This document shows positions 3,025 through 55,767 of a stretch of 64,000 nt of DNA, one piece after another. Made by a program: the position numbers and the translations under genes. Numbering within the stretch: the first letter of the stretch is position 1; each line of letters opens with the position of its first letter. The notes beneath the pieces are model-generated. The model made no database searches. It was not told the origin of the DNA and worked only from the letters and a program-made list of their open reading frames with translations. Origin of the DNA: an uncultured Hormoscilla sp. (GTDB lineage Bacteria; Cyanobacteriota; Cyanobacteriia; Cyanobacteriales; Desertifilaceae); contig OZ001293.3 in NCBI GenBank assembly GCA_963921275.4, forward strand, positions 2,592,001-2,656,000, written 5' to 3'.

Positions 3025-5240
3025 TTTTGTTAACCTCCTTATTATCAACTCTTGTGGAAGTGAAAAGTTGAGCAATTAAATAAACTGCCATTCCCGCCGC
3101 CATACCGGGAAGCGTTTCGTTAACCCCATCGGACAGCTTCAATTCTATCCAGGTCAAAGCTGTACCGATGCCCACTAGCATCATGGCGATCGCCACGGGC
3201 GCACTTACGTTTTTCTGCCAAACCCGCAGGACCAATAACGGACCCAGACCAGATGCTAGGGCCGACCAGGAGAAAATTACCAACGCAAATATGTTGTCTG
3301 GAGCCAATATGGCGATCGCCACAACCAGTATTGTCACTAACAGAGTCCATAGCTTTGCCAGAGTATAAGAATTGACAGCGGCAGAAAAAATATCTCGACC
3401 CAGGGTAGCAGAACAAGAGAGAATCTGAGAGTCAGCAGTGAAAATGTGCGATGAGTTCTAGCCTAACGTAGTCAAACACGGAACGCTAGCCTAGGAAACT
3501 AGGAACTCTGATATTCATGGGGGTTCAATTCCTCTCCCCCAGGTACGGGGGTGACACCGGTCCTCAGTGCTGCGGAGCAACATCACCGTGGTGCCAAGCG
3601 AGGACTTAAATGTAGGATAGCTGGCAGCCTAAGCCGGTGACGCCGCTAGGAAAGATGGCCAAGGTTAGAGCAAGCGAACCCATGCAAGCCTCGTAAAGCT
3701 AAACCAGCGAAATAAGGCTTTATGCGCTGGCCCAAAAGGGGAAGTAGTTAGTATTGGTTATATTTTCTGGCCAATATCGTATTCAAAGAACTACCGGGGT
3801 ATAGTGGGGACCTAAAGTCATCGTGAAATGGTATCAGGGAACGAAGTAACCCCTCGTGTGCTGTCCATCGGGACAAGTCAGATGTGGAGCGAATGCCACG
3901 GGTGGGAAAGATGGCCCGAGAAGCTAATGCCTGGAGTAATGTCCACGGATAGGGATACGGATACGTATCCGCAGACGCGGGTCGGTGATAGTTGGAAACC
4001 TTCGGTAAAAGTAACCTTAAATACGCAGCGGTACTGAGTCCGGCGCTAGCTGGGCGACAGTTTGGATAAGTCCTCTGGACAAAGGGGTGAAGTAGCAGGA
4101 GGCAAGGGATAACAGGAGCAATCCTCAGTAAACCTACCCGTGACAAGGGCCAACTACCCAGTAGCCGTGTGCGGCTCCAGTCGCATGCACGGTTCCTCAA
4201 GGGAGGGTTGGGGAGCGATTCCCAGCGAGACCCCTAATAGTTCCCGCAAACAGTCCTGCCAACATCACTCCCACCAAGCCAACTGGTAATAATTCTAGTG
4301 CTAAATAGGGCAGGGTCAATTCCGGACCCCCTCCACTCATCAACTCTGGCATCAAGACTCTGCCTGTCAGTCCGATCGTCGTCGCCGTCAAGGAATTAAC
4401 CAGAAAGCAGATGCTTCTCACGTTGTTAGCCAAATCCATGTTATCTTCAGAATCGATCGCCATTGCCCGCACCATAATGTGAGGTTGACCGACTACGCCC
4501 AAACCGCTAACCAACCACCCGATCGCAAAAGGCAATACACCCCAGGCTAGATTTGGTGGATTCAAACTGACCAATGCCGGGTCAATAACGCCAAGTTTTC
4601 GACTCAATTCCATCACGCCACCGCAACTAGCAACCGCCACCACTGACAGCAGCAGTAAGGAACCAACCATCAAGATACCCTGGGCCGCATCGGTCCAGAT
4701 GGAGGCGCGGATACCCCCAGAAAAACAGTAGATGATAACGATGAAGGCTCCCAGTACGATACCAAAATAATAGTTCCAACCAAAGATCGCATTCAGGGCC
4801 TTGCTGCCAGCTACCAGTTGGGCGGCGGCATAAGCACCCAGAAACGCTATAGTAATTATCCCCGAGAGTGCGGCGATCGCCCGACCTGATTTTGCGGCCA
4901 GGAAAGAGGAGAAAGTCTCCGCATCCCTTTGGGCAGATATTTTTCTTAACCGCTTGCCCACCAACCACCAAGAGATATGCTGTCCCACCGTCGCGCTAAC
5001 AATACACCATATAGAAGCCAATACTAGTTTGTAGCTAAAACCGACCACACCTGCAAATAGAAAGCCACTCTGAGTGGTTGCCATCGCCGATAGCCTCGTC
5101 AGCCAGGGATTTACATTTCTGCTAGCTAGCAGGTAATCTGTAGTGGTCTTTTGCTTGCGCAACAGCGCCAATGTTCCCACCAATACAAATAATAGGAGAA
5201 AGGCGACGAAAGTAACCGCAATAGATGTTCTATCGTTCAT
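3014..5240 (-). pseudogene. Sodium:solute (PutP-like) symporter interrupted by an antisense group II intron
   Basis: Joining 5240-4239 to 3445-3014 gives 1434 nt in frame (..LFAGT|IFTADSQIL..), matching the paralog's LFAATISTADSQIL. The intron is on the opposite strand. Confidence 0.85.
3446..4238 (+). mobile_element. ORF-less group II intron, diverged sister type (793 nt)
   Basis: 5' end GTGCG. Domain V AGCCGTGTGCGGCTCCAGTCGCATGCACGGTTC. Domain VI ends ...GAGACCCCTAAT. EBS1 ATTTTC (3762-3767) pairs with the 5' flank GAAAAT. No RT ORF. Confidence 0.9.
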
Positions 5241-6370: not shown

Positions 6371-8285
6371 TCACAGATTGGTATACTTAAACTTAGAGCC
6401 ACAAGCTACAGGAATCCGTCTCGCTGCCCCACGCCATAACTCCAATGCCACATCGGACAAATTTTGACCATCCGCCTGGAGCATCCGCGAGATCATGCTA
6501 ATATTGCCAAAAGACCAAAACAAGCCCGCCTCCAGCAGATACGGCTCGTTGGTTTCGGCATGCACTCTGAAGTCATACAGGGAGTAATCGCGACCGCCCA
6601 AAGCTATATGTGCCCGCTTGGCTGCATCAGAGATTTTCTCCCATAAAGAAGGCGTGACATTCCCCGGACAGACGGGTTTCACTGCTGGCTTGTCAGGTTG
6701 TTTCCTGGGCAGTCCGTCCCCTTGCAGGTCATACTTATCACGTACAGTTCTAATGGGATTGTCCTTGGTGACTAAATACTCGATCGTCGGCAGCACCCAT
6801 AACTTCCCCTCACGTTCGACTACCCCCACGCGCAGTTCCCGTCCGGGGATGTAATCTTCTACCAACAAGGTCTCGTCATGTTCAAACCCCACCCGCAATG
6901 CTTCAACTATTTGATCTTCTTCCCAAACCAAAGTCAAGCCCAAAGAATTATCTTCCGAGTTCGGCTTCACCATAAATGGGGGCTGCATGGTCACGGTATC
7001 CCCCTGGCGCACAACTTGGGCCTTGGCCACCGGGACACCAGATGCTGACACGACGCTTCTGGTTTGAGCTTTGTTAGTTGCCAGGGCAGTACAACTAGGT
7101 GGCGACCCCACTACTGGTAGCCCGAGGATGTCCTCGAAGAATCCACGGAAACTAATCATCCCTGGGACACAGAACATATGCGGCACTACTACATCCACCT
7201 CCGGTAGCCCCGCGATCGCCTCTTGGAGGGGCATCTTCTCTGATGGATGGGGTCGAGCCGGGAATCGCTTCCCGACCCTCCCTTGAGGAACCGGACTTGC
7301 GATTTTCACCGCATCCGGCTACTGGGTACTAGGCCCTTTTCATAGGTAGACTTAATAGGAATTACTTCCGTTAGCCCTTGCCGCCTGTCTTTTCTTCCCT
7401 TTCCTGGTTTAGCGAGTGGTTGTTCTGATAACCGTTAGTATCACCATTTTCAAGTCAGTTTTACCAGTTATCCATACCTTATCCTCCACTTGCGTTTCGG
7501 ATTAGTTCCGTGGCTTTTTAGGATTACTCATTCCAGCAGCTTCCTAGTATCACCGACCCACGTCAGCGCTGGCTACCCAGCATCATCTACATTACTGTAG
7601 ATGTTATCCCAGGAATTACCCCGGGCATTCGCTTCTTGGGCCATCCCTCCCCCCGTGGCTTGCGCTTAACATCTAACTTGTCCTGATGGACAGCACACGA
7701 GAGGTTACTTCGTTCCCTAACAACATTTCGCGATACCTTTAGGTCCACACTATACCCCGGGAGCTATTTGAGTACTATATTAGCCAGAGTCTAAAACTAA
7801 TACTAGCTACCATTTCCTTTTTAGGCCAGCGCATATAGCCTTATTTCGCTGGTTCCTTATAACGAGGCTTGCACATGTTTGCCTGCTCTAACCTTGGATA
7901 TCTTTCCTAGCGGCGTCACCGGCTTAGGCTGCCAGTTATCCTACATTTGAGTCCTCGCTTAGCACCACGATGATGTCGCTTCGTAGCACCGAGGACCGGT
8001 GTCACCCCCGTACCTGGGGGGAGGGGAATTTAACCCCCATGCGGTCAGAGTTCCCGGCTAATGAAACCGGGCTAGCGTTCCGTGTTTGACCACGTTAGGC
8101 TAGAACGAATCGCACAGACTGTCTAAGGATGCACCTAGCTGCCAAAGACCATCCGGGTGTACCACGGCGTAGTAGCTACTGACACCAATTGGTTGCACTA
8201 CTTCCCTTGCGTAGATTACCGACAGGTTGTAGTAGAAGTCGGATACGCGAGAACCTGCTAGGTGCAAAACTCGCAAGCAAGGCAT
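6371..8285 (-). CDS. mysD: D-Ala-D-Ala ligase-like MAA ligase, copy 1; exons 8285-8116 and 7244-6371, 347 aa if spliced
   Basis: Exon 1 MPCLRVLHLAGS..LDS joins exon 2 SEKMPLQEAI..VVPHMFCVPGM..KPNSEDNSLG..YSLYDFRV..EAGL. Total 1044 nt in frame. Lies in a mysABC context. Confidence 0.85.
7245..8115 (-). mobile_element. ORF-less group II intron, main family, copy 1 (871 nt), in mysD1
   Basis: 5' end GTGCGATTCGTTCTAG. Domain V AGCCGGATGCGGTGAAAATCGCAAGTCCGGTTC. Domain VI ends ...CTCGACCCCATCC. Confidence 0.93.
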
Positions 8286-8342
8286 TGTGTCTGATATCAT
8301 CACCAATTTTTCTGTTGTACTTGAGTTTGCTCACATATCATA

Positions 8343-11790: not shown

Positions 11791-13720
11791 TTACGTTTTC
11801 TCTGCTTTCGCAGCGTACTTAAACTTGGCACCACAAGCTACACGAGTACGCCGAAGAGCCGCCGCACTCCACAACTCCCATGCCAGATCGGACAAACTTT
11901 GGCCATCCGCCTGCAGCATCCGCGAGATCATGCCAATTTTGCTGAAAGATCCATACAAACTCGCCTCCAGCATATAGGGCTCATCTGTCTCGGCATGCAC
12001 TCGGAAGTCATACAGGGAGCATTCGCGACAGCCCAAAGCTATATGTGCCCGCTTCACTGCATCAGAGATTTTCTCCCATAAAGAAGGCGTGACCTTAGCC
12101 GGACACACTGGCTTCACTGCTGGCTTGTCAGGTTGTTTCCTCGGCAGTCCGTCCCCTTGCAGGTCATACTTATCACGTAAAGTTCTAATGGGATTGTCGG
12201 AGGTGACTAAATACTCGATCGCTGGCAGCACCCATAACTTCCCCTCACGCTCGACTACTGCCACCCGCAGTTCCCGTCCGGGGATGTAATCTTCTACCAA
12301 CAAGGTTTCGTCATGTTCAAACCCCACCCGCAATGCTTCAACTATTTGATCTTCTTCCCAAACCAAAGTCAAGCCCAAAGAATTATCTTCCGAGTTCGGC
12401 TTAACTATAAATGGGGGCTGCATGGTCACGCTATCCCCTCGGCGCACAACTTGGGCCTTGGCGATCGGGACACCATAGGCTGATACTACGCTTCTGGTTT
12501 GAGCTTTGTTAGTTGCTAGGGCCGTACAACTAGGTGGCGACCCCACTACCGGTAGCCCGAGGATGTCCTCGAAGAGCCCACGGAAACTGGTCATCCCTGG
12601 GACACAGAACATATGCGGCACTACTACATCCACCTCCGGTAGCCCCGCGATCGCCTCTTGGAGGGGCATCTTCTCTGATGGATGGGGTCGAGCCGGGAAT
12701 CGCTTCCCGACCCTCCCTTGAGGAACCGGACTTGCGATTTTCACCGCATCCGGCTACTGGGTACTAGGCCCTTTTCATAGGTAGACTTAATAGGAATTAC
12801 TTCCGTTAGCCCTTGCCGCCTGTCTTTTCTTCCCTTTCCTGGTTTAGCGAGTGGTTGTTCTGATAACCGTTAGTATCACCATTTTCAAGTCAGTTTTACC
12901 AGTTATCCATACCTTATCCTCCACTTGCGTTTCGGATTAGTTCCGTGGCTTTTTAGGATTACTCATTCCAGCAGCTTCCTAGTATCACCGACCCACGTCA
13001 GCGCTGGCTACCCAGCATCATCTACATTACTGTAGATGTTATCCCAGGAATTACCCCGGGCATTCGCTTCTTGGGCCATCCCTCCCCCCGTGGCTTGCGC
13101 TTAACATCTAACTTGTCCTGATGGACAGCACACGAGAGGTTACTTCGTTCCCTAACAACATTTCGCGATACCTTTAGGTCCACACTATACCCCGGGAGCT
13201 ATTTGAGTACTATATTAGCCAGAGTCTAAAACTAATACTAGCTACCATTTCCTTTTTAGGCCAGCGCATATAGCCTTATTTCGCTGGTTCCTTATAACGA
13301 GGCTTGCACATGTTTGCCTGCTCTAACCTTGGATATCTTTCCTAGCGGCGTCACCGGCTTAGGCTGCCAGTTATCCTACATTTGAGTCCTCGCTTAGCAC
13401 CACGATGATGTCGCTTCGTAGCACCGAGGACCGGTGTCACCCCCGTACCTGGGGGGAGGGGAATTTAACCCCCATGCGGTCAGAGTTCCCGGCTAATGAA
13501 ACCGGGCTAGCGTTCCGTGTTTGACCACGTTAGGCTAGAACGAATCGCACAGACTATCTAAGGATGTGCCTAGCTGCCAAAGGCCATCGGGGTGTACCAC
13601 GGCGTAGTAGCTACTGACACCAACTGGTTGCACTACTTCCCTTGCGTAGATTACCGACAGGTTGTAGTAGAAGTCGGATACGCGAGAACCTGCTAGGTGC
13701 AAAACTCGCAAGCAAGGCAT
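11791..13720 (-). CDS. mysD: D-Ala-D-Ala ligase-like MAA ligase, copy 2; exons 13720-13551 and 12679-11791, 352 aa if spliced
   Basis: Paralog of copy 1. The two exons total 1059 nt in frame once the intron is removed. Confidence 0.85.
12680..13550 (-). mobile_element. ORF-less group II intron, main family, copy 2, in mysD2
   Basis: Same 871-nt sequence and same insertion codon as copy 1. Confidence 0.93.
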
Positions 13721-13771
13721 TGTTTCTGATATCATCCCCAATCTACTGTTGTACTTAATTTTTCTCAAATG

Positions 13772-21903: not shown

Positions 21904-22774
21904 GTGCGATTCGTTCTAGCCTAACGTGGTCAAACACGGAACTCTAGCCCGGTTTCATTAGCCGGGAACTCTGACCGCATGGGGGTTAAATTCCCCTCCC
22001 CCCAGGTACGGGGGTGACACCGGTCCTCGGTGCTACGAAGCGACATCATCGTGGTGCTAAGCGAGGACTCAAATGTAGGATAACTGGCAGCCTAAGCCGG
22101 TGACGCCGCTAGGAAAGATATCCAAGGTTAGAGCAGGCAAACATGTGCAAGCCTCGTTATAAGGAACCAGCGAAATAAGGCTATATGCGCTGGCCTAAAA
22201 AGGAAATGGTAGCTAGTATTAGTTTTAGACTCTGGCTAATATAGTACTCAAATAGCTCCCGGGGTATAGTGTGGACCTAAAGGTATCGCGAAATGTTGTT
22301 AGGGAACGAAGTAACCTCTCGTGTGCTGTCCATCAGGACAAGTTAGATGTTAAGCGCAAGCCACGGGGGGAGGGATGGCCCAAGAAGCGAATGCCCGGGG
22401 TAATTCCTGGGATAACATCTACAGTAATGTAGATGATGCTGGGTAGCCAGCGCTGACGTGGGTCGGTGATACTAGGAAGCTGCTGGAATGAGTAATCCTA
22501 AAAAGCCACGGAACTAATCCGAAACGCAAGTGGAGGATAAGGTATGGATAACTGGTAAAACTGACTTGAAAATGGTGATACTAACGGTTATCAGAACAAC
22601 CACTCGCTAAACCAGGAAAGGGAAGAAAAGACAGGCGGCAAGGGCTAACGGAAGTAATTCCTATTAAGTCTACCTATGAAAAGGGCCTAGTACCCAGTAG
22701 CCGGATGCGGTGAAAATCGCAAGTCCGGTTCCTCAAGGGAGGGTCGGGAAGCGATTCCCGGCTCGACCCCATCC
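21904..22774 (+). mobile_element. ORF-less group II intron, main family, copy 3 (apparently intergenic, upstream of mysA)
   Basis: 871 nt, GTGCG...CCCCATCC. EBS2 ATAAGG at 22159-22164 and EBS1 AGACTC at 22227-22232. Confidence 0.93.
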
Positions 22775-22868
22775 AGCACATCTGCCTCGATTTTTAGCTT
22801 ACCTCATCTACTTTCATTTTACCACCTATTAGGCCGCACAGATCCTCACCTCAGTCAGTTTATTAAGC

Positions 22869-28275: not shown

Positions 28276-31200
28276 CTACACGAAGACGAAATTATCTGCT
28301 GTGAGAGCCGTAGCAGTGGATGGGGTCGAGCCGGGAATCGCTTCCCGACCCTCCCTTGAGGAACCGGACTTGCGATTTTCACCGCATCCGGCTACTGGGT
28401 ACTAGGCCCTTTTCATAGGTAGACTTAATAGGAATTACTTCCGTTAGCCCTTGCCGCCTGTCTTTTCTTCCCTTTCCTGGTTTAGCGAGTGGTTGTTCTG
28501 ATAACCGTTAGTATCACCATTTTCAAGTCAGTTTTACCAGTTATCCATACCTTATCCTCCACTTGCGTTTCGGATTAGTTCCGTGGCTTTTTAGGATTAC
28601 TCATTCCAGCAGCTTCCTAGTATCACCGACCCACGTCAGCGCTGGCTACCCAGCATCATCTACATTACTGTAGATGTTATCCCAGGAATTACCCCGGGCA
28701 TTCGCTTCTTGGGCCATCCCTCCCCCCGTGGCTTGCGCTTAACATCTAACTTGTCCTGATGGACAGCACACGAGAGGTTACTTCGTTCCCTAACAACATT
28801 TCGCGATACCTTTAGGTCCACACTATACCCCGGGAGCTATTTGAGTACTATATTAGCCAGAGTCTAAAACTAATACTAGCTACCATTTCCTTTTTAGGCC
28901 AGCGCATATAGCCTTATTTCGCTGGTTCCTTATAACGAGGCTTGCACATGTTTGCCTGCTCTAACCTTGGATATCTTTCCTAGCGGCGTCACCGGCTTAG
29001 GCTGCCAGTTATCCTACATTTGAGTCCTCGCTTAGCACCACGATGATGTCGCTTCGTAGCACCGAGGACCGGTGTCACCCCCGTACCTGGGGGGAGGGGA
29101 ATTTAACCCCCATGCGGTCAGAGTTCCCGGCTAATGAAACCGGGCTAGCGTTCCGTGTTTGACCACGTTAGGCTAGAACGAATCGCACAACCCCAATAAG
29201 GGTTAGAGAGTCATCATCATCGAAAGTGATGACTGTATTAGATCCATTTTGGGTAGTTGCCCCTAAAACCGCTGTTAAATCAGGGAATCAAAAAGCGCTA
29301 ACGTCAATAGCATCCTCAGAGATGTCGAAGTCGGTAATAGCATCCGCACTACCACTATCGGTAGCGACGAAAGTATCTGCTGCTGCTCCCAGACTCACCG
29401 TAACGGCTGTACCGGAGTTTTGGGTGAAACTGTCACTCCCACCTCCAAGTAAAACATCACCGTTGAGAGTACCATTATTGACAACATTGATGCTACCAAG
29501 AGAGCCACTAGCATGAATAGCAGCGTTCCCGTTACCACCTGTAATAGTACCCCCAGCTTCGTTGGTGATGGTGCCGTTAAACGCTACACCTGCCTGAATG
29601 AGGATACCAGCACTTTCCTCAGAAGCAATGGTACCGGAGTTAGTGATGGAACCTGTTACCGTAGCTCCTGCTGTACCGCTGAAGAAGCGAATCCCAGCGG
29701 GAACATTATCAGCACCCCGCCCTCGAATTGAACCCTGGTTTGAGATGACAATATTCTCAGAAGTTGCATCCTCATCAACTTCGCCAATTTCAGCTGAGAT
29801 CCCGCTACCGGAATTCCCGGCTCCTGCATCGATAGTACCACTACTATTGATAGTAATGCCATCTGCTGTGCCATCTAAGTAAATAGTACCATTGCGCTGA
29901 TCTCCTGTTTTCAGAATCTGCCCGGTGTTAATTAGGGTGACGCCATTACCGTCCAAGTTCACTGCACGACTGTCGGAGGATATGGTTCCTGCATTTAATA
30001 TGGTCAAATCATGGTCAGCATTACCAATATAAAGACTATTATTTGGTCCTTCAATCTCACCACTGTTGGTGATCGTGCCATCGAAAGCCACTCCATCTTC
30101 TACCAAAATCCCGCCCACAGTGCCAGTTTCTGCTTCGGTTGAGATGATATTGAAGTTGGTAATATAAGCTGTTACAGTGGCTTCTCCTTCAGCAGCAGTC
30201 AAACCGCTGAAGAAGCGGATCCCAGCGGGAACATTATCAGCACCCCGCCCTCGAATTGAACCCCGGTTTGAGATGACAATATTCTCAGAAGTTGCATCCT
30301 CATCAACTTCGCCAATTTCAGCTGAGATCCCGCTACCGGAATTCCCTGCTCCTGCATCGATGGTACCACTACTATTGATAGTAATGCCATCTGCTGTGCC
30401 ATCTAGGTAAATATTACCATTGCGCTGATCCCCCGTTCCCAGAATCTGCCCACTGTTATTCAGGGTGACATTATCCCCGTCCAAGTTGACTGCACGACTG
30501 TCGGAGGATATGGTTCCTGCATTTAATATGGTCAAATCATGGTCAGCATTAACAATATAAAGACCATTATTTGGTCCTTCAATCTCGCCACCATATCTGT
30601 TAGCGATCGTGCCATCGAAAGCCACTCCATCTTCTACCAAAATCCTGCCCACAGTGCCAGTTTCTGCTTCGGTTGAGATGATATTGAAGTTGGTAATATA
30701 AGCTGTTACAGTGGCTTCTCCTTCAGCAGCAGTCAAACCGCTGAAGAAGCGGATCCCAGCGGGAACATTATCAGCACCCCGCCCTCGAATTGAACCCCGG
30801 TTTGAGATGACAATATTCTCAGAAGTTGCATCCTCATCAACTTCGCCAATTTCAGCTGAGATCCCGCTACCGGAATTCCCTGCTCCTGCATCGATGGTAC
30901 CACTACTATTGATAGTAATGCCATCTGCTGTGCCATCTAGGTAAATAGTACCATTGCGCTGATCTCCTGTTCCCAGAATCTGCCCACTGTTATTCAGGGT
31001 GACATTATCCCCGTCCAAGTTGACTGCACGGCTATCTGAAGATATCTCCCCTGAATTTTTAATCCTGAGATTGTGGCGAGCATTACCAACGTAAATACCA
31101 TTGATATCTCCTTCAATCTCACCCCACAAACGGTTGTTGATAATACCATTGAAAGCGACCCCATCTTGAACCACAATTGCACCGCCAGCGTCTATCTCAG

Positions 31201-45495: not shown

Positions 45496-47317
45496 ATGGA
45501 TGTTTCTCTGAGCAGCTCTCAGGTAAAGCAAAAAGCGCTAGAATTGGGCTTCCATAAGGTGGGCATAGCGGCTATAGATGCTAAAACTGTCAGTAAAGCA
45601 GTTGAACGTTTACAGGCATGGCTAGGAAATGGCTACCAGGCGGATATGGAATGGATGGCAAACCCTAAGCGTCAAGATATCCGTCAGGTAATGCCTTCAG
45701 TTCAGTCTATTATTACGGTAGCTCTCAATTACTATACTGCTCATCAGCGTCCTGAAGGGAGTCAGTACGGAAAAATCTCTCGCTATGGGTGGGGACGGGA
45801 CTATCATCGGGTGATGGACAAAAAGCTGAAACTGTTAGCAAACTGGCTGCGATCGCACTCTTGTGGAGTGGAAGTGCGTTACTATGCTGATACGGGACCT
45901 GTTCAGGATAAGGTATGGACCCAGGCGGCGGGGATTGGCTGGATTGCCAAGAATGGTAATGTAATTACGCGGGAGTATGGGTCTTGGGTATTTTTGGGAG
46001 AAGTGTTGACGAATATAGTTTTAACCCCAGATGGGCCCCATACTGAACATTGTGGCACTTGTACTCGCTGTATAGACGCTTGTCCTACGGGGGCGATCGC
46101 CCAGCCCTTTGTAGTAGACGCTAATCGCTGTATTGCCTATCATACGATCGAGAATCGTGCCGACAGTTTACCCCTAGCGATCGGGTCTCATCTAGAGGGT
46201 TGGGTTGCGGGTTGCGACATTTGCCAAGATGTCTGTCCCTGGAATCAGCGGTTTGCCAAAGAAACCGACATTACTGAGTTTGTGCGATTCGTTCTAGCCT
46301 AACGTGGTCAAACACGGAACGCTAGCCCGGTTTCATTAGCCGGGAACTCTGACCGCATGGGGGTTAAATTCCCCTCCCCCCAGGTACGGGGGTGACACCG
46401 GTCCTCGGTGCTACGAAGCGACATCATCGTGGTGCTAAGCGAGGACTCAAATGTAGGATAACTGGCAGCCTAAGCCGGTGACGCCGCTAGGAAAGATATC
46501 CAAGGTTAGAGCAGGCAAACATGTGCAAGCCTCGTTATAAGGAACCAGCGAAATAAGGCTATATGCGCTGGCCTAAAAAGGAAATGGTAGCTAGTATTAG
46601 TTTTAGACTCTGGCTAATATAGTACTCAAATAGCTCCCGGGGTATAGTGTGGACCTAAAGGTATTGCGAAATGTTGTTAGGGAACGAAGTAACCTCTCGT
46701 GTGCTGTCCATCAGGACAAGTTAGATGTTAAGCGCAAGCCACGGGGGGAGGGATGGCCCAAGAAGCGAATGCCCGGGGTAATTCCTGGGATAACATCTAC
46801 AGTAATGTAGATGATGCTGGGTAGCCAGCGCTGACGTGGGTCGGTGATACTAGGAAGCTGCTGGAATGAGTAATCCTAAAAAGCCACGGAACTAATCCGA
46901 AACGCAAGTGGAGGATAAGGTATGGATAACTGGTAAAACTGACTTGAAAATGGTGATACTAACGGTTATCAGAACAACCACTCGCTAAACCAGGAAAGGG
47001 AAGAAAAGACAGGCGGCAAGGGCTAACGGAAGTAATTCCTATTAAGTCTACCTATGAAAAGGGCCTAGTACCCAGTAGCCGGATGCGGTGAAAATCGCAA
47101 GTCCGGTTCCTCAAGGGAGGGTCGGGAAGCGATTCCCGGCTCGACCCCATCCAACCCCTATCCCGAGAATCTGACTCCCAAGTTGAGCGAATTGGCAGAA
47201 ATTTCTGATGCGGAGTAGAACCGGCGATTTCCCGCTTCGGCCCTGCGGCGGATTAAACCAGAGATGCTGCGGCGAAATGCTCGTGCTAACCTGGAAGCAG
47301 ATGCGCTCGTTGAATAA
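45496..47317 (+). CDS. queG: Epoxyqueuosine reductase; exons 45496-46281 and 47153-47317, premature TAG at 47216
   Basis: Motifs [29 protein letters not shown] and [12 protein letters not shown]. Spliced junction reads [24 protein letters not shown]. Confidence 0.9.
46282..47152 (+). mobile_element. ORF-less group II intron, main family, copy 5, in queG
   Basis: 871 nt, sense, junction TTT|AAC. Confidence 0.93.
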
Positions 47318-47942
47318 ATGATGGTAATTATTTTTGATTTTGATGGTACTCTGGCTGATACGCTAGATGCGATCGTCTCTATTACTAATCGCTTATCTGG
47401 GTAATTTGGATATCAACCTGCTAGTCCTGAAGAGGTGATTAAACTAAAAAATTTAAGTTCGAGAAAAGTTCTTCAGCAGTCTGGTATTTCTCTGTGGAAG
47501 TTACCTTTTTTGCTCAAAAGGGTGAGAACAGATTTCAATCATCACATGGATGAATTAAAACCAGTTCCCGGAATTAAAGCAGCCTTGAGGGAATTAAAAC
47601 AGCGCGGTTATCAGCTGGGGATTCTCACTTCTAATGCTCGGGAAAATGTGCAGCTGTTTGCCAAGCTTCATGGTTTAGATCCTCTGTTTGATTTTATTCA
47701 CAATGAATCTGTTTGAAAAAGGGCGGGCGATCGAACATTTGTTAAGTCAGTTAAGATGCGATCGCCAGGAGGTAATTTATGTGGGAGATGAAACCAGAGA
47801 TATAGAGGCGGCCAAAAAAACCAAGATTAGGGCAATCTCCGTCAGTTGGGGTTTTAATTCTCCAGAAATATTGGCCGCGCACAACCCAGATTTTTTGATC
47901 CATCAACCCAGAGAATTGATTGCAGTGATTGAAAATTGCTAA
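47318..47942 (+). pseudogene. HAD-family phosphatase (phosphoglycolate phosphatase-like)
   Basis: Motifs IIFDFDGTLAD, ILTSN and YVGDETRDI. TAA near 47402 and a frameshift near 47710. Confidence 0.82.
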
Positions 47943-50194: not shown

Positions 50195-51670
50195 CTAGCG
50201 TCCGCCAACAGTAATCGAATCCACCTTCAGATGAGGCTGTCCCACTGTTACGTAGATACTACCACTAACGGAGCCACAGAAACCAGGTGCTAGTCCCAAA
50301 TCTTGGGAACTCATAGAAATCTTGTTCATGATTTCGCTAGCTTCGCCAATCAATGTAGCACCCTTCAGCGGCTTGGTAATTTTGCCCTTTTCAATCAGGT
50401 AGGCTTCATCTACAGCAAAGTTAAACTCACCTGTAGCCCCCACACTGCCGCCGCCCATTTTTTTACAATAAATGCCTTTGTCGATCGAGGCAAATAGGTC
50501 ATCAATGGAGTCGTCTCCGGGGGCGATGTAGGTATTCCGCATCCGCGAAGCTGCCGCAAAGGTATAGCTTTGCCGCCGTCCACTTCCAGTGCGGGGATGT
50601 CCAGTGCGCATGGAACCGGCCCGGTCAGCAATAAAATTTTTCAGGATGCCCTTTTCAATCAACAGGGTTTTTTGAGCGGGCATCCCTTCATCATCCATGT
50701 CGATCGTCCCGAAAGCATTGCCCGATCGCCCTTCATCCCAGGCCGTCAGATTTTCGTGAGCAATTTTTTCGCCTTTTTTATCAATGAAGGGAGTAGTTTT
50801 CTTTTCGATCTGAGTCGTTTCCAGCAGGTGTCCGCAGGCTTCGTGGAAGATTACGCCGCCAAACTTATTCGCCATGATAATGGGATAAGTTCCCGACTCC
50901 ACGTAATCAGCGTAGAGCATTTTCCCGGCCGCTTCTGCTACTTCCGAGGCCGTAGTTTCATAGTCCCAGGTTTTCAAGAAATCTGCTTGACTGGTGCTGC
51001 CAACCCGTTTGTTGATCGCGGAGCGATGGCTACCATCAGCGCACAACAGATTATAACCCACAGATTGAGTCAGGCGGATGTCCCGGGCGAAAGTGCCATC
51101 ACTGGCAGCAACTAGGACCTCTTGCCAATCTCGGAAATAGATCGATCGCTTCGACTGTACGTGACTAGCTTTCTGAGCCAGTTTAGCATTAGCGTCCAGC
51201 AGCACCTCTGACATTTCCCGCATCGAGCTACATTCAGACAGCAATACTTCCTTACCTTTGGTGGTAGCATAGTCTCTGAGGGGTTCCAGGGTAACTTCCG
51301 GGATGTAGGAATTGGCAAGAGACAATTGCAGTCCCAGGATGGAGAGACCTTTTTCCAAAGCAGCTTTCAGTCCCGCAAATGTCAAGTCGTTGGTGCTGAC
51401 ATAGCAGTCCGCTTTGCCGCGAAATACTCTCACCCCAGCGCCAGTTGACAGGCGGGGGGATATACTGGTGATCGCGTCGTCTTCTGCCAGACAGCTAATA
51501 TAGTTTACCCGTTCTAGGAAGAATTCGATCAAATCCGCCCCTGTGGCCCGTCCCCATCCCAGCAGGGTGGAAATCATTGCCTCCCACGAAGCGTCGAAGC
51601 GATTTTTGGTCGAACTGTACTCACGGGCCGACAGTTCTTGGGATTGAGGTGCTGTAATTACTAGATTCAT
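50195..51670 (-). CDS. tldD: TldD metalloprotease
   Basis: Motifs [32 protein letters not shown] and GQPHL. Confidence 0.92.
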
Positions 51671-53154: not shown

Positions 53155-54873
53155 ATTAAACTAAGCCAGTCCGTCACCGGACCGACTCGTTTTCAAAACC
53201 GGACGTGAGATTTTCACCTCATCCGGCTCCTCAGTAACGCCATCCTTGTCATGGACACGGCAACTACCGTCACTGGCAGTCTTGATATCGTGGCAATGTT
53301 TGTGTAGCAGTTGTAGGTTGTCCCACTGGTCCTTACCACCTAATGAGAGTGGCTTGATGTGGTCTACTTCCCATCTGTCGTTATCCTTAAACGTTAGTCC
53401 GTATTGTTGACATTTCCCCTTTTGCCTTTTCAGTAGCATAGCTACTCGGTTACTTAATTCCGGGTTTTTGCCTAGTCTTGTGCTCCAATATGTGAGGTTC
53501 CCGTCGTATGGGCTAGCTCTTCCTTTCACTTTAATGTGTCTCACTATCCCTACACTTGCGTGTCGATTTAGTGTTACCTCCCTTTTATCTTCACACCGGA
53601 ATCGCCATTGTCCATCTTGGTCCACTGACCAGTATTTTTGGGCTATCCAATGCTTTGACTTGTTGGCGTGTCTTCTCTTTGCCCAATCCTACAGGATTTT
53701 CCATAGGTAATCGTCCATGTCCGAGTAAACTTCTTTGCTTACTCCTGTCCTGAAGTAGTTTGCCCATCCTCGTATTATCGGGTTGAGTTTGCTAATCAGG
53801 GCGTCTTGTGGAGCTGCTCTGTAACTGTTTACTATCTCTTTTAACCTTTCTTTGTGCTTACCTGTGGATTTATTACTGGGTTTGATGAGGGTCTTGTAAC
53901 CTAGGGGTTTTCCATGTCCGTTCTTGCTGCTTCTATTCTTACTAATCTCATATTGCCTTACGTTGAACCCCAAGAAGTCGAATCCTGGTTCTTCTCCCTC
54001 TAGCGTATGAGCTATTTTTGTCTTTTCCGGCTTCAATTCTAGTCCAACCCCTTTCTGCCACTCTGCTATGACCACTTGCGCCTCTTCTATCTTCTTTCTA
54101 TCCTCATGCATTACCACAAGGTCATCGGCGTATCTGACCACTGTCAGCTTCTCCTTCTCTCTTTGTGTTTTTACAAGTTCCATCACAGCCTCCTCTAGCC
54201 CATGTAGAGCTATGTTTGCCAGTAACGGTGATATGACTCCTCCCGTACCCTCTTTGGTTGCATACCATTCTTTCTTGTCTATCACCCCGGCTTTTAACCA
54301 TGCCCGTATTTGTTTACGGATTGGTGAAGTCGTATTCAGTTTTTCTATCAGCGCTTTATGGTCAATCTTATCAAAGCATTTTGCAATGTCAGCATCTAAT
54401 ACCCATTTGGGTTTGTACCTAATGCTGTTGAATATTGCTTCGATTGCATCGTGGCATCCTCTTCCAGGTCTGAATCCGTAGGAGTTACCTTCCATATACG
54501 CTTCCCATTCAGGATAACTGCGCAATTTTCAGTAACCCCTGTGTCGCTCGGTCGTGCATTGTAGGTATTCCTAATGGACGTTTTTCGTCTCTCCCTGGCT
54601 TGGGTATCCACACTCGTCGCGCGGGCCGAGCTTGGCTGGAGATTTCTATTTGTCCTACCAGTTCTAGTCGTTGCTTTGGGGTTAGTGATTTCACACCATC
54701 CACACCTGCCGTTTTCTTTCCCTGGTTGTCTTGTGTTACCTGCCGTACCGCTAGACTTTTGGCAGCCCGGGATTTTACCAGCATCATCTGTAAGTTGTCA
54801 GGGCTAATGAAACCCTGCTATCTGGGACAGCTTTTGAATTGTGTCAAGTCGGTTTAATCTAAACGAATCGCAC
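53155..54873 (-). mobile_element. ltrA: Degenerate RT/maturase/HNH-encoding group II intron (chloroplast-like class)
   Basis: GTGCG start at 54873. RT motifs GKKTAGVDG, RPLGIPT, SYGFRPGR, DADIAKCFD, YADD and FDFLGF; HNH EVDH..NLQLLH. Domain V GAGCCGGATGAGGTGAAAATCTCACGTCCGGTT; ends TTAGTTTAAT. Two frameshifts, PQ missing from GTPQGG, most of domains I-III deleted. Confidence 0.9.
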
Positions 54874-54896: not shown

Positions 54897-55767
54897 GGAT
54901 GGGGTCGAGCCGGGAATCGCTTCCCGACCCTCCCTTGAGGAACCGGACTTGCGATTTTCACCGCATCCGGCTACTGGGTACTAGGCCCTTTTCATAGGTA
55001 GACTTAATAGGAATTACTTCCGTTAGCCCTTGCCGCCTGTCTTTTCTTCCCTTTCCTGGTTTAGCGAGTGGTTGTTCTGATAACCGTTAGTATCACCATT
55101 TTCAAGTCAGTTTTACCAGCTATCCATACCTTATCCTCCACTTGCGTTTCGGATTAGTTCCGTGGCTTTTTAGGATTACTCATTCCAGCAGCTTCCTAGT
55201 ATCACCGACCCACGTCAGCGCTGGCTACCCAGCATCATCTACATTACTGTAGATGTTATCCCAGGAATTACCCCGGGCATTCGCTTCTTGGGCCATCCCT
55301 CCCCCCGTGGCTTGCGCTTAACATCTAACTTGTCCTGATGGACAGCACACGAGAGGTTACTTCGTTCCCTAACAACATTTCGCGATACCTTTAGGTCCAC
55401 ACTATACCCCGGGAGCTATTTGAGTACTATATTAGCCAGAGTCTAAAACTAATACTAGCTACCATTTCCTTTTTAGGCCAGCGCATATAGCCTTATTTCG
55501 CTGGTTCCTTATAACGAGGCTTGCACATGTTTGCCTGCTCTAACCTTGGATATCTTTCCTAGCGGCGTCACCGGCTTAGGCTGCCAGTTATCCTACATTT
55601 GAGTCCTCGCTTAGCACCACGATGATGTCGCTTCGTAGCACCGAGGACCGGTGTCACCTCCGTACCTGGGGGGAGGGGAATTTAACCCCCATGCGGTCAG
55701 AGTTCCCGGCTAATGAAACCGGGCTAGCGTTCCGTGTTTGACCACGTTAGGCTAGAACGAATCGCAC
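54897..55767 (-). mobile_element. ORF-less group II intron, main family, copy 6
   Basis: 871 nt with two visible substitutions. Sense in the PAS kinase, junction AT|A. Confidence 0.93.

Follow-up and report, generated by a model that had tools for sequence, protein, structure and literature searches.

RmInt1 of Sinorhizobium meliloti, a mobile group II intron of class D (IIB3), offers a described parallel to the introns analysed here. In the portion of the RmInt1 literature on which we draw, this intron ends in CC in place of AY, pairs its last C with a gamma G and forms lariats, and its CC end has been studied by mutation (PMC4238363). The seven introns that we call the main family likewise end in CC instead of AY. 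Since AY is a consensus with published exceptions (PMC4238363), we do not take the CC end to exclude group II membership. There are also differences between RmInt1 and the main family. RmInt1 is IIB3/class D, whereas the main family appears to have IIB2-type features; it encodes its own protein, whereas the main family carries no ORF; and it resides in an insertion sequence, whereas the main-family copies sit in ordinary genes. In addition, exon CC follows intron CC in RmInt1, giving an ambiguous CCCC run that has been blamed for low fidelity, whereas the first exon base after the main family is A. Class D introns of the RmInt1 type encode a protein without an endonuclease (En) domain; the only reverse transcriptase (RT) in the DNA analysed has an HNH domain.

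Another parallel comes from class B introns with a domain VII, such as B.c.I4, in which the true 3' splice site also lies downstream of the position given by the standard model (PMC4424553, PMC2691827, PMC1865049, each used in part). In the relevant passages of a review, class B introns that carry an extension of 50-70 nt are the only ones listed with altered 3' sites (PMC4424553). According to these excerpts, such introns splice 53-70 nt downstream by way of an added domain, whereas the offset in the main family is 2 nt with nothing added: only 4 nt follow domain VI, and a domain VII-type 3' extension (50-70 nt) is absent. Lastly, ORF-less IIB2 (chloroplast-like) introns have been described in cyanobacteria, for example Tr.e.I7 of Trichodesmium, and the sections of that literature at hand do not mention a non-AY 3' end; the main family and its CC-type relatives end in CC. 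Our literature search found no paper joining Hormoscilla and group II introns.

Seven copies and their host genes

The 64-kb window (the whole stretch of DNA that was analysed) holds seven near-identical ORF-less group II introns, 871 nt long (872 in one copy), with 0-3 substitutions among them. Copy 1 (21904..22774, plus strand, 871 nt), which carries the CC end under study, lies in no ORF. Each of the other six interrupts an ORF in sense orientation. Copy 2 (46282..47152, plus) is inserted in queG after ...DITEF. Copies 3 (7245..8115, minus) and 4 (12680..13550, minus) split the same Leu codon (CT/A) in two Ddl-like (mysD-like) paralogs, A and B respectively. Copy 5 (28318..29188, minus) is close to the C-terminus of a large secreted-type (T1SS-like) protein (GTT/ACT), copy 6 (54897..55767, minus) interrupts a PAS-like ORF (AT/A) 23 nt upstream of an RT-encoding element, and copy 7 (62312..63183, minus, 872 nt) splits a Tyr codon (T/AC) of a two-repeat protein. 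Copies 3 and 4 are identical introns between diverged exon flanks, which indicates independent homing or gene conversion and fits repeated homing. The loci of the two mysD-like paralogs extend over 6371-8330 and 11791-13771 (minus strand), and their neighbours are a methyltransferase, a PRK06849-like ATP-grasp fragment and a second, intact symporter.

All seven copies show the boundary T/GTGCG...CCCCATCC/A that a sequence-only reading of this DNA had described, with a GUGYG-type start (GTGCG, 7/7) at one end and CC at the other. Across the window, the final 15 nt of the intron, GGCTCGACCCCATCC, are found exactly seven times (0.08 expected by chance), and so is the 5' motif GTGCGATTCGTTCTAGCC. 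A further stretch, GGCCCGTCCCCATCC at 51545-51559 (plus strand), has two mismatches to the main intron 3' end and no domain V near it, and is probably a chance match. In copy 1, the 3' tail AUCC is at 22771..22774 (plus strand); its last C (22774) is gamma', its penultimate C (22773) stands in place of the usual A, and the base that follows (22775), the first of the 3' exon and thus the IBS3 position, is A, as in 7/7 copies.

The host genes tell where the intron ends. Excision of GTGCG...ATCC recreates the gap-free sequence of homologs in four hosts. In mysD-like A and B, the spliced reading is ...QLG(A/T)SLDS-L-SEKMPLQEAIA..., and the Leu of the split codon is found in 12/12 aligned homologs (12 aligned out of 120 listed). 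Spliced queG, whose product is 91% identical to a Hormoscilla homolog, reads ...TEF/NPYPEN; all 14 of the homologs aligned have this Phe, and the next residue is N in the eight nearest of them and Q in the remaining six. Judged by its protein homologs, the organism stands next to Hormoscilla cyanobacteria. The repeat protein becomes ...GD/YLYSE, the same as in both of the homologs that reach the junction (2/4). The sequence-only reading had claimed restored frames in six hosts; homologs bear this out for the four above, and for the other two the claim is plausible. The spliced T1SS-like C-terminus would be ...LIGV/TATALTADNFVFV followed by a stop, and the spliced PAS-like host ...R/IIHPED, both plausibly sensible readings. 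For the secreted-type, PAS-like and repeat hosts, a Pfam search with the part encoded by exon 1 found no family. At the DNA level, the CC end in place of AY is real.

Relatives, ribozyme structure and splice-site contacts

The window also contains a sister intron (3446..4238, plus strand; 793 nt), with a mean column identity of 85% to the main family, which ends in AU rather than CC (CCCCTAAT, tail UAAU). Its orientation is antisense to the sodium:solute symporter gene that hosts it, so that it could not be spliced from the symporter mRNA. The symporter ORF on the opposite strand (341+143 codons) is restored only by exact excision of the sister, and the ends of this intron are thereby fixed independently. 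Its domain VI is equal in length to that of the main family, and its UAAU aligns gap-free with AUCC; ATCC therefore does sit at the homologous terminus, as had been proposed from sequence. Its domain V loop is UCCA, not GNRA. The RT-encoding element (53155..54873, minus strand), which starts 23 nt after copy 6 and ends in AAU, is a degenerate remnant: about 95 nt of 5' ribozyme abut the ORF directly, with the remainder of domain I and all of domains II-III deleted, and domains V-VI are retained. Its RT/maturase/HNH ORF is broken into three pieces (RVT_N; RVT_1+GIIM; HNH), and an in-frame TAG is seen near 53690 (minus). There is no intact reverse transcriptase/maturase within the 64-kb window.

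Further relatives came from a domain V pattern scan over one genome per species, which gave at least 104 loci, 80 of them taken with flanking DNA; a scan of genome contigs with a domain V plus J5/6 pattern gave no match. Seven loci among the at least 104 matches have the domain VI of the main family, GGGAGG...UCGACCCC, followed by four bases. Four of these end in CC (L051 AUCC/A, L067 GUCC/U, L096 GACC/G and L007 AACC/A, with 3' ends set by alignment only) and three in AY (L011 UAAC; L014 and L065 UAAU). The sister, L011, L014 and L065 have the same domain VI, 4-nt linker and branch distance as the main family, and differ from it in ending UAAU or UAAC.

The helices of domains V and VI are well maintained in these introns. 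Domain V is a hairpin with the catalytic AGC and a bulge of 2 nt. In copy 1, it is at 22699..22730 (plus strand; GAAA loop), as identified by Rfam and pair counts, and domain VI at 22737..22770 (plus), with a bulged branch-candidate A at 22766. Over nine sequences the domain V-VI helices are 98.7% paired, with double changes at 10 pairs; this was equalled by 0/500 shuffles, and slid controls gave 32-57%. Taken separately, domain V has 13 pairs that are 99.1% paired in nine relatives, and domain VI has 13 pairs, seven of them doubly changed in a compensatory way, with the bulged A in 9/9 sequences. Eight nucleotides follow this A in the main family and the sister and seven in the RT element, and both the bulged A and the 8-nt spacing are identical in CC- and AY-ending relatives. 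The sequence-only reading had put the branch A at -9, versus -8 in the RT element. The position is correct, but it has no link to the CC end: being common to AU- and AC-enders, it is a feature of the lineage and not part of the CC variant.

Upstream, the domain II stem and the basal domain III stem are 93.8% paired with eight double-change pairs, and this covariation bounds the six-base linker J2/3 between them (AGGGAU; 22371..22376 in copy 1, plus strand, with gamma the G at 22373). A whole-intron RNAalifold fold made from two sequences was not a proper six-domain model; it was used for hints only, and the helices were tested separately. The family appears to be of IIB2 (chloroplast-like) type: the 5' sequence and the abutment of domains III and IV are present, two extra 5' hairpins are predicted, and there is an EBS3 candidate. 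The EBS1 candidate AGACUC (22227..22232, plus), in a hairpin loop, complements GAGUCU-like 5' exon ends, and the EBS2 candidate UAAGG (22160..22164, plus) complements CCUUA upstream of 4/7 copies. The EBS1 loop is a perfect complement of the 5' exon end in both the sister (GAAAAT) and L067 (AAGGAT), and complements it at 4-6 of 6 positions in the seven copies. In L067, where the +1 base is U instead of A, a U-to-A change is found at two adjacent candidate EBS3 columns.

The linker J2/3 changes together with the intron end. It is AGGGAU in 4/4 CC-type introns and AAAGAU in the AU-ending sister; in two more distant AC-enders it is GAGGAU (L097) and AAGGAC (L055). The passages used here on P.li.LSUI2 assign gamma to A420, two positions before residue A422 of J2/3 (PMC6224600). 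Taking gamma as the base that precedes the conserved GA, it complements the last intron base throughout: G-C in the four CC-type introns, A-U in the sister and G-C in the two AC-enders. The covariation of gamma with gamma' across intron types, proposed earlier as a check, is thus present, and it rests on few independent contrasts because the change from AU to CC and the A-to-G switch at gamma may be a single evolutionary event.

The pairing between tail and linker could extend further. From gamma on, the tail AUCC would form four contiguous pairs with 5'-GGAU-3' of J2/3 in the main family and L051; L067 (GUCC) would have four if G-U is counted, and L007 (AACC) three plus an A-A mismatch. In the canonical relatives, where UAAU or UAAC faces AGAU or GGAU, only the gamma pair can form. 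Immediately 5' of gamma stands G in 4/4 CC-type introns and A in 3/3 AY-type ones. With few lineages to compare, we consider it doubtful, though worth stating, that the CC-type tail pairs with J2/3 beyond the single gamma-gamma' pair, over up to four bases, and that the base 5' of gamma follows the penultimate intron base.

Splicing pathway and alternative readings

The variant 3' splice site after CC put forward in the sequence-only reading is supported by the four homolog-checked hosts, the aligned sister intron and the gamma-gamma' covariation. Very probably, then, the main family is a mobile ORF-less IIB2-type group II intron whose RNA ends in ...GACCCCAUCC-3', with the exons joined at CC instead of at the AU 2 nt before it. 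The 3' site is set by the usual contacts, and the sole departure is the penultimate base, C for A. The last intron C would pair with the gamma G of J2/3 AGGGAU, the A with which the 3' exon begins in every copy would pair with a U at EBS3, and the bulged A of domain VI, 8 nt upstream of the splice site, would be the branch point, its 4-nt linker appearing normal for the lineage.

From the sequences we infer that the main family is spliced, branches at this A and has its exons ligated. Excision would most likely yield a lariat, helped by a maturase supplied in trans, and the intron would have spread through reverse splicing at targets that fit EBS1 and EBS2 and have A at +1. Branching is favoured over hydrolysis on two counts: structural selection acts on domain VI and its bulged A, and the presence of seven near-identical copies at EBS1/EBS2-matching sites argues for recent reverse splicing of the excised intron. 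Full reverse splicing is known to need the lariat. Hydrolytic splicing, which had been raised as an option, finds no support: seven of the 13 domain VI pairs are compensatory, the bulged A is kept, and the seven copies imply reverse splicing. As in RmInt1 (PMC4238363), the CC end could be accompanied here by an inefficient second step and by low fidelity.

This last point leads to a reading that we regard as unlikely, in which the boundaries are right but splicing is poor or hydrolytic, and the intron is mainly a gene-disrupting retroelement whose hosts decay to pseudogenes. For RmInt1, which is known to end in CC, the description of splicing reports that the second step is inefficient and that few exons are ligated, both in vitro and in vivo (PMC4238363), and the sister intron, being antisense in its gene, cannot leave its transcript. 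Three hosts also have in-frame stops near the intron. In queG, TAG (47216-47218, plus strand) replaces a Trp found in 14/14 homologs, 63 nt downstream of the intron; in the repeat protein, TAG (62297-62295, minus) replaces a Glu 15 nt downstream; and the T1SS-like host has an apparent in-frame TGA (29290-29288, minus) about 100 nt upstream. These three may not be expressed as proteins, and their frames therefore show the insertion point only. An intron-free HAD-like ORF has an apparent in-frame TAA as well (47402-47404, plus). As in-frame stops occur in several genes, one of them intron-free, the window looks generally pseudogene-rich, and the decay would be general rather than tied to the intron. 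Both mysD-like paralogs still keep open frames (71+291 and 73+296 codons), and the near-identical copies are likely to be younger than the lesions in the host genes. The sense-strand position of 6/7 copies in their ORFs, the maintenance of domain VI and its bulged A by covariation, and the need of full reverse splicing for the lariat also speak against poor splicing.

Far less probable is a canonical end at CCCCAU, with the trailing CC being exon sequence required by the homing site. This placement has the Rfam model on its side: RF00029 matches domains V-VI in 7/7 copies (44.4 bits against a cut-off of 40), and its alignment stops at CCCCAU, 2 nt before the end supported by the frames. The branch A would then be at the textbook distance, and CCA comes next in 7/7 copies, as a homing site would require. 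However, an end at CCCCAT leaves the CC behind and shifts the frame in 6/6 genic copies, as the sequence-only reading had said, and the homologs of the mysD-like, queG and repeat proteins have no extra residue at the junction. The relatives that end in GUCC, GACC and AACC have no AY at that place, and the UAAU of the sister, confirmed by the restored symporter ORF, sits at the aligned position.

In the remaining option, the two ends would move in step by 1 or 2 nt (e.g., TGTGCG...CCATC/CA, named earlier as a junction that would overturn the CC end). It draws on the invariant T before and A after the intron, and some of these shifts leave the protein of one host or another unchanged (+1 and +2 for the mysD-like genes, -1 for queG), but it is next to impossible. 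Every shift (-2, -1, +1, +2) conflicts with one host or more, and the repeat protein by itself contradicts all four, since its conserved Tyr would become His with -1 or -2 and Cys with +1 or +2. In the mysD-like proteins, -1 and -2 give Pro for Leu, queG would acquire Asp (+1), Val (+2) or Ser (-2), and the intron start GUGCG would be lost.

Distribution and significance of the CC end

Three of the CC-ending relatives (L051, L067 and L007) are from Hormoscilla metagenome-assembled genomes. Their flanks yielded no decisive ORF. Identity to the main intron is just 70-78% in L067 and L051, which indicates that CC has been kept through much divergence, with positions -4 and -3 varying. From the sequences compared, the CC end thus appears to be a lineage trait, fixed in a sub-lineage that comprises this genome and Hormoscilla genomes. 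A blastn search of the main intron against 72,556 plasmids, including the S. meliloti megaplasmids, gave no match.

Some observations were made further afield. Among the scan loci, eight from unrelated bacteria (L004, L026, L052, L042, L044, L062, L063 and L101) apparently end in CCCUCC, CUCUCC or CCCGGC, and relatives of these eight end in CCCGAC or CUCUAC, all ends being read from their position relative to domain VI. Departures from AY may therefore be commoner than the rule implies. A blastn search with L052 against plasmids led to an intron on S. meliloti pSymA that is 2191 nt long and, by this length, is not RmInt1. In this intron (L105/L106, pSymA 1064000-1069800), EBS1 CUCCCGC matches the 5' exon GCGGGAG, and the intron ends in ...CUACUCAUCC; its host region reads as an IS256-like transposase, and this context left the 3' end ambiguous.

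A CC terminus has published precedent in another class, namely RmInt1, in the portion of the work that describes it (PMC4238363); it is rare but not unprecedented. For annotation, the consequence is direct: both RF00029 and the AY rule end the intron 2 nt early, and automated annotation would frameshift every host gene. If the extended pairing of the tail with J2/3 is true, nature would here have rewired the docking of the 3' splice site, with a short helix in place of the contact normally made by the penultimate A. Finally, the close sisters (UAAU or UAAC at the end, with AAAGAU against AGGGAU in J2/3 of the sister within the window) represent built-in controls for the role of the penultimate base in the second splicing step.
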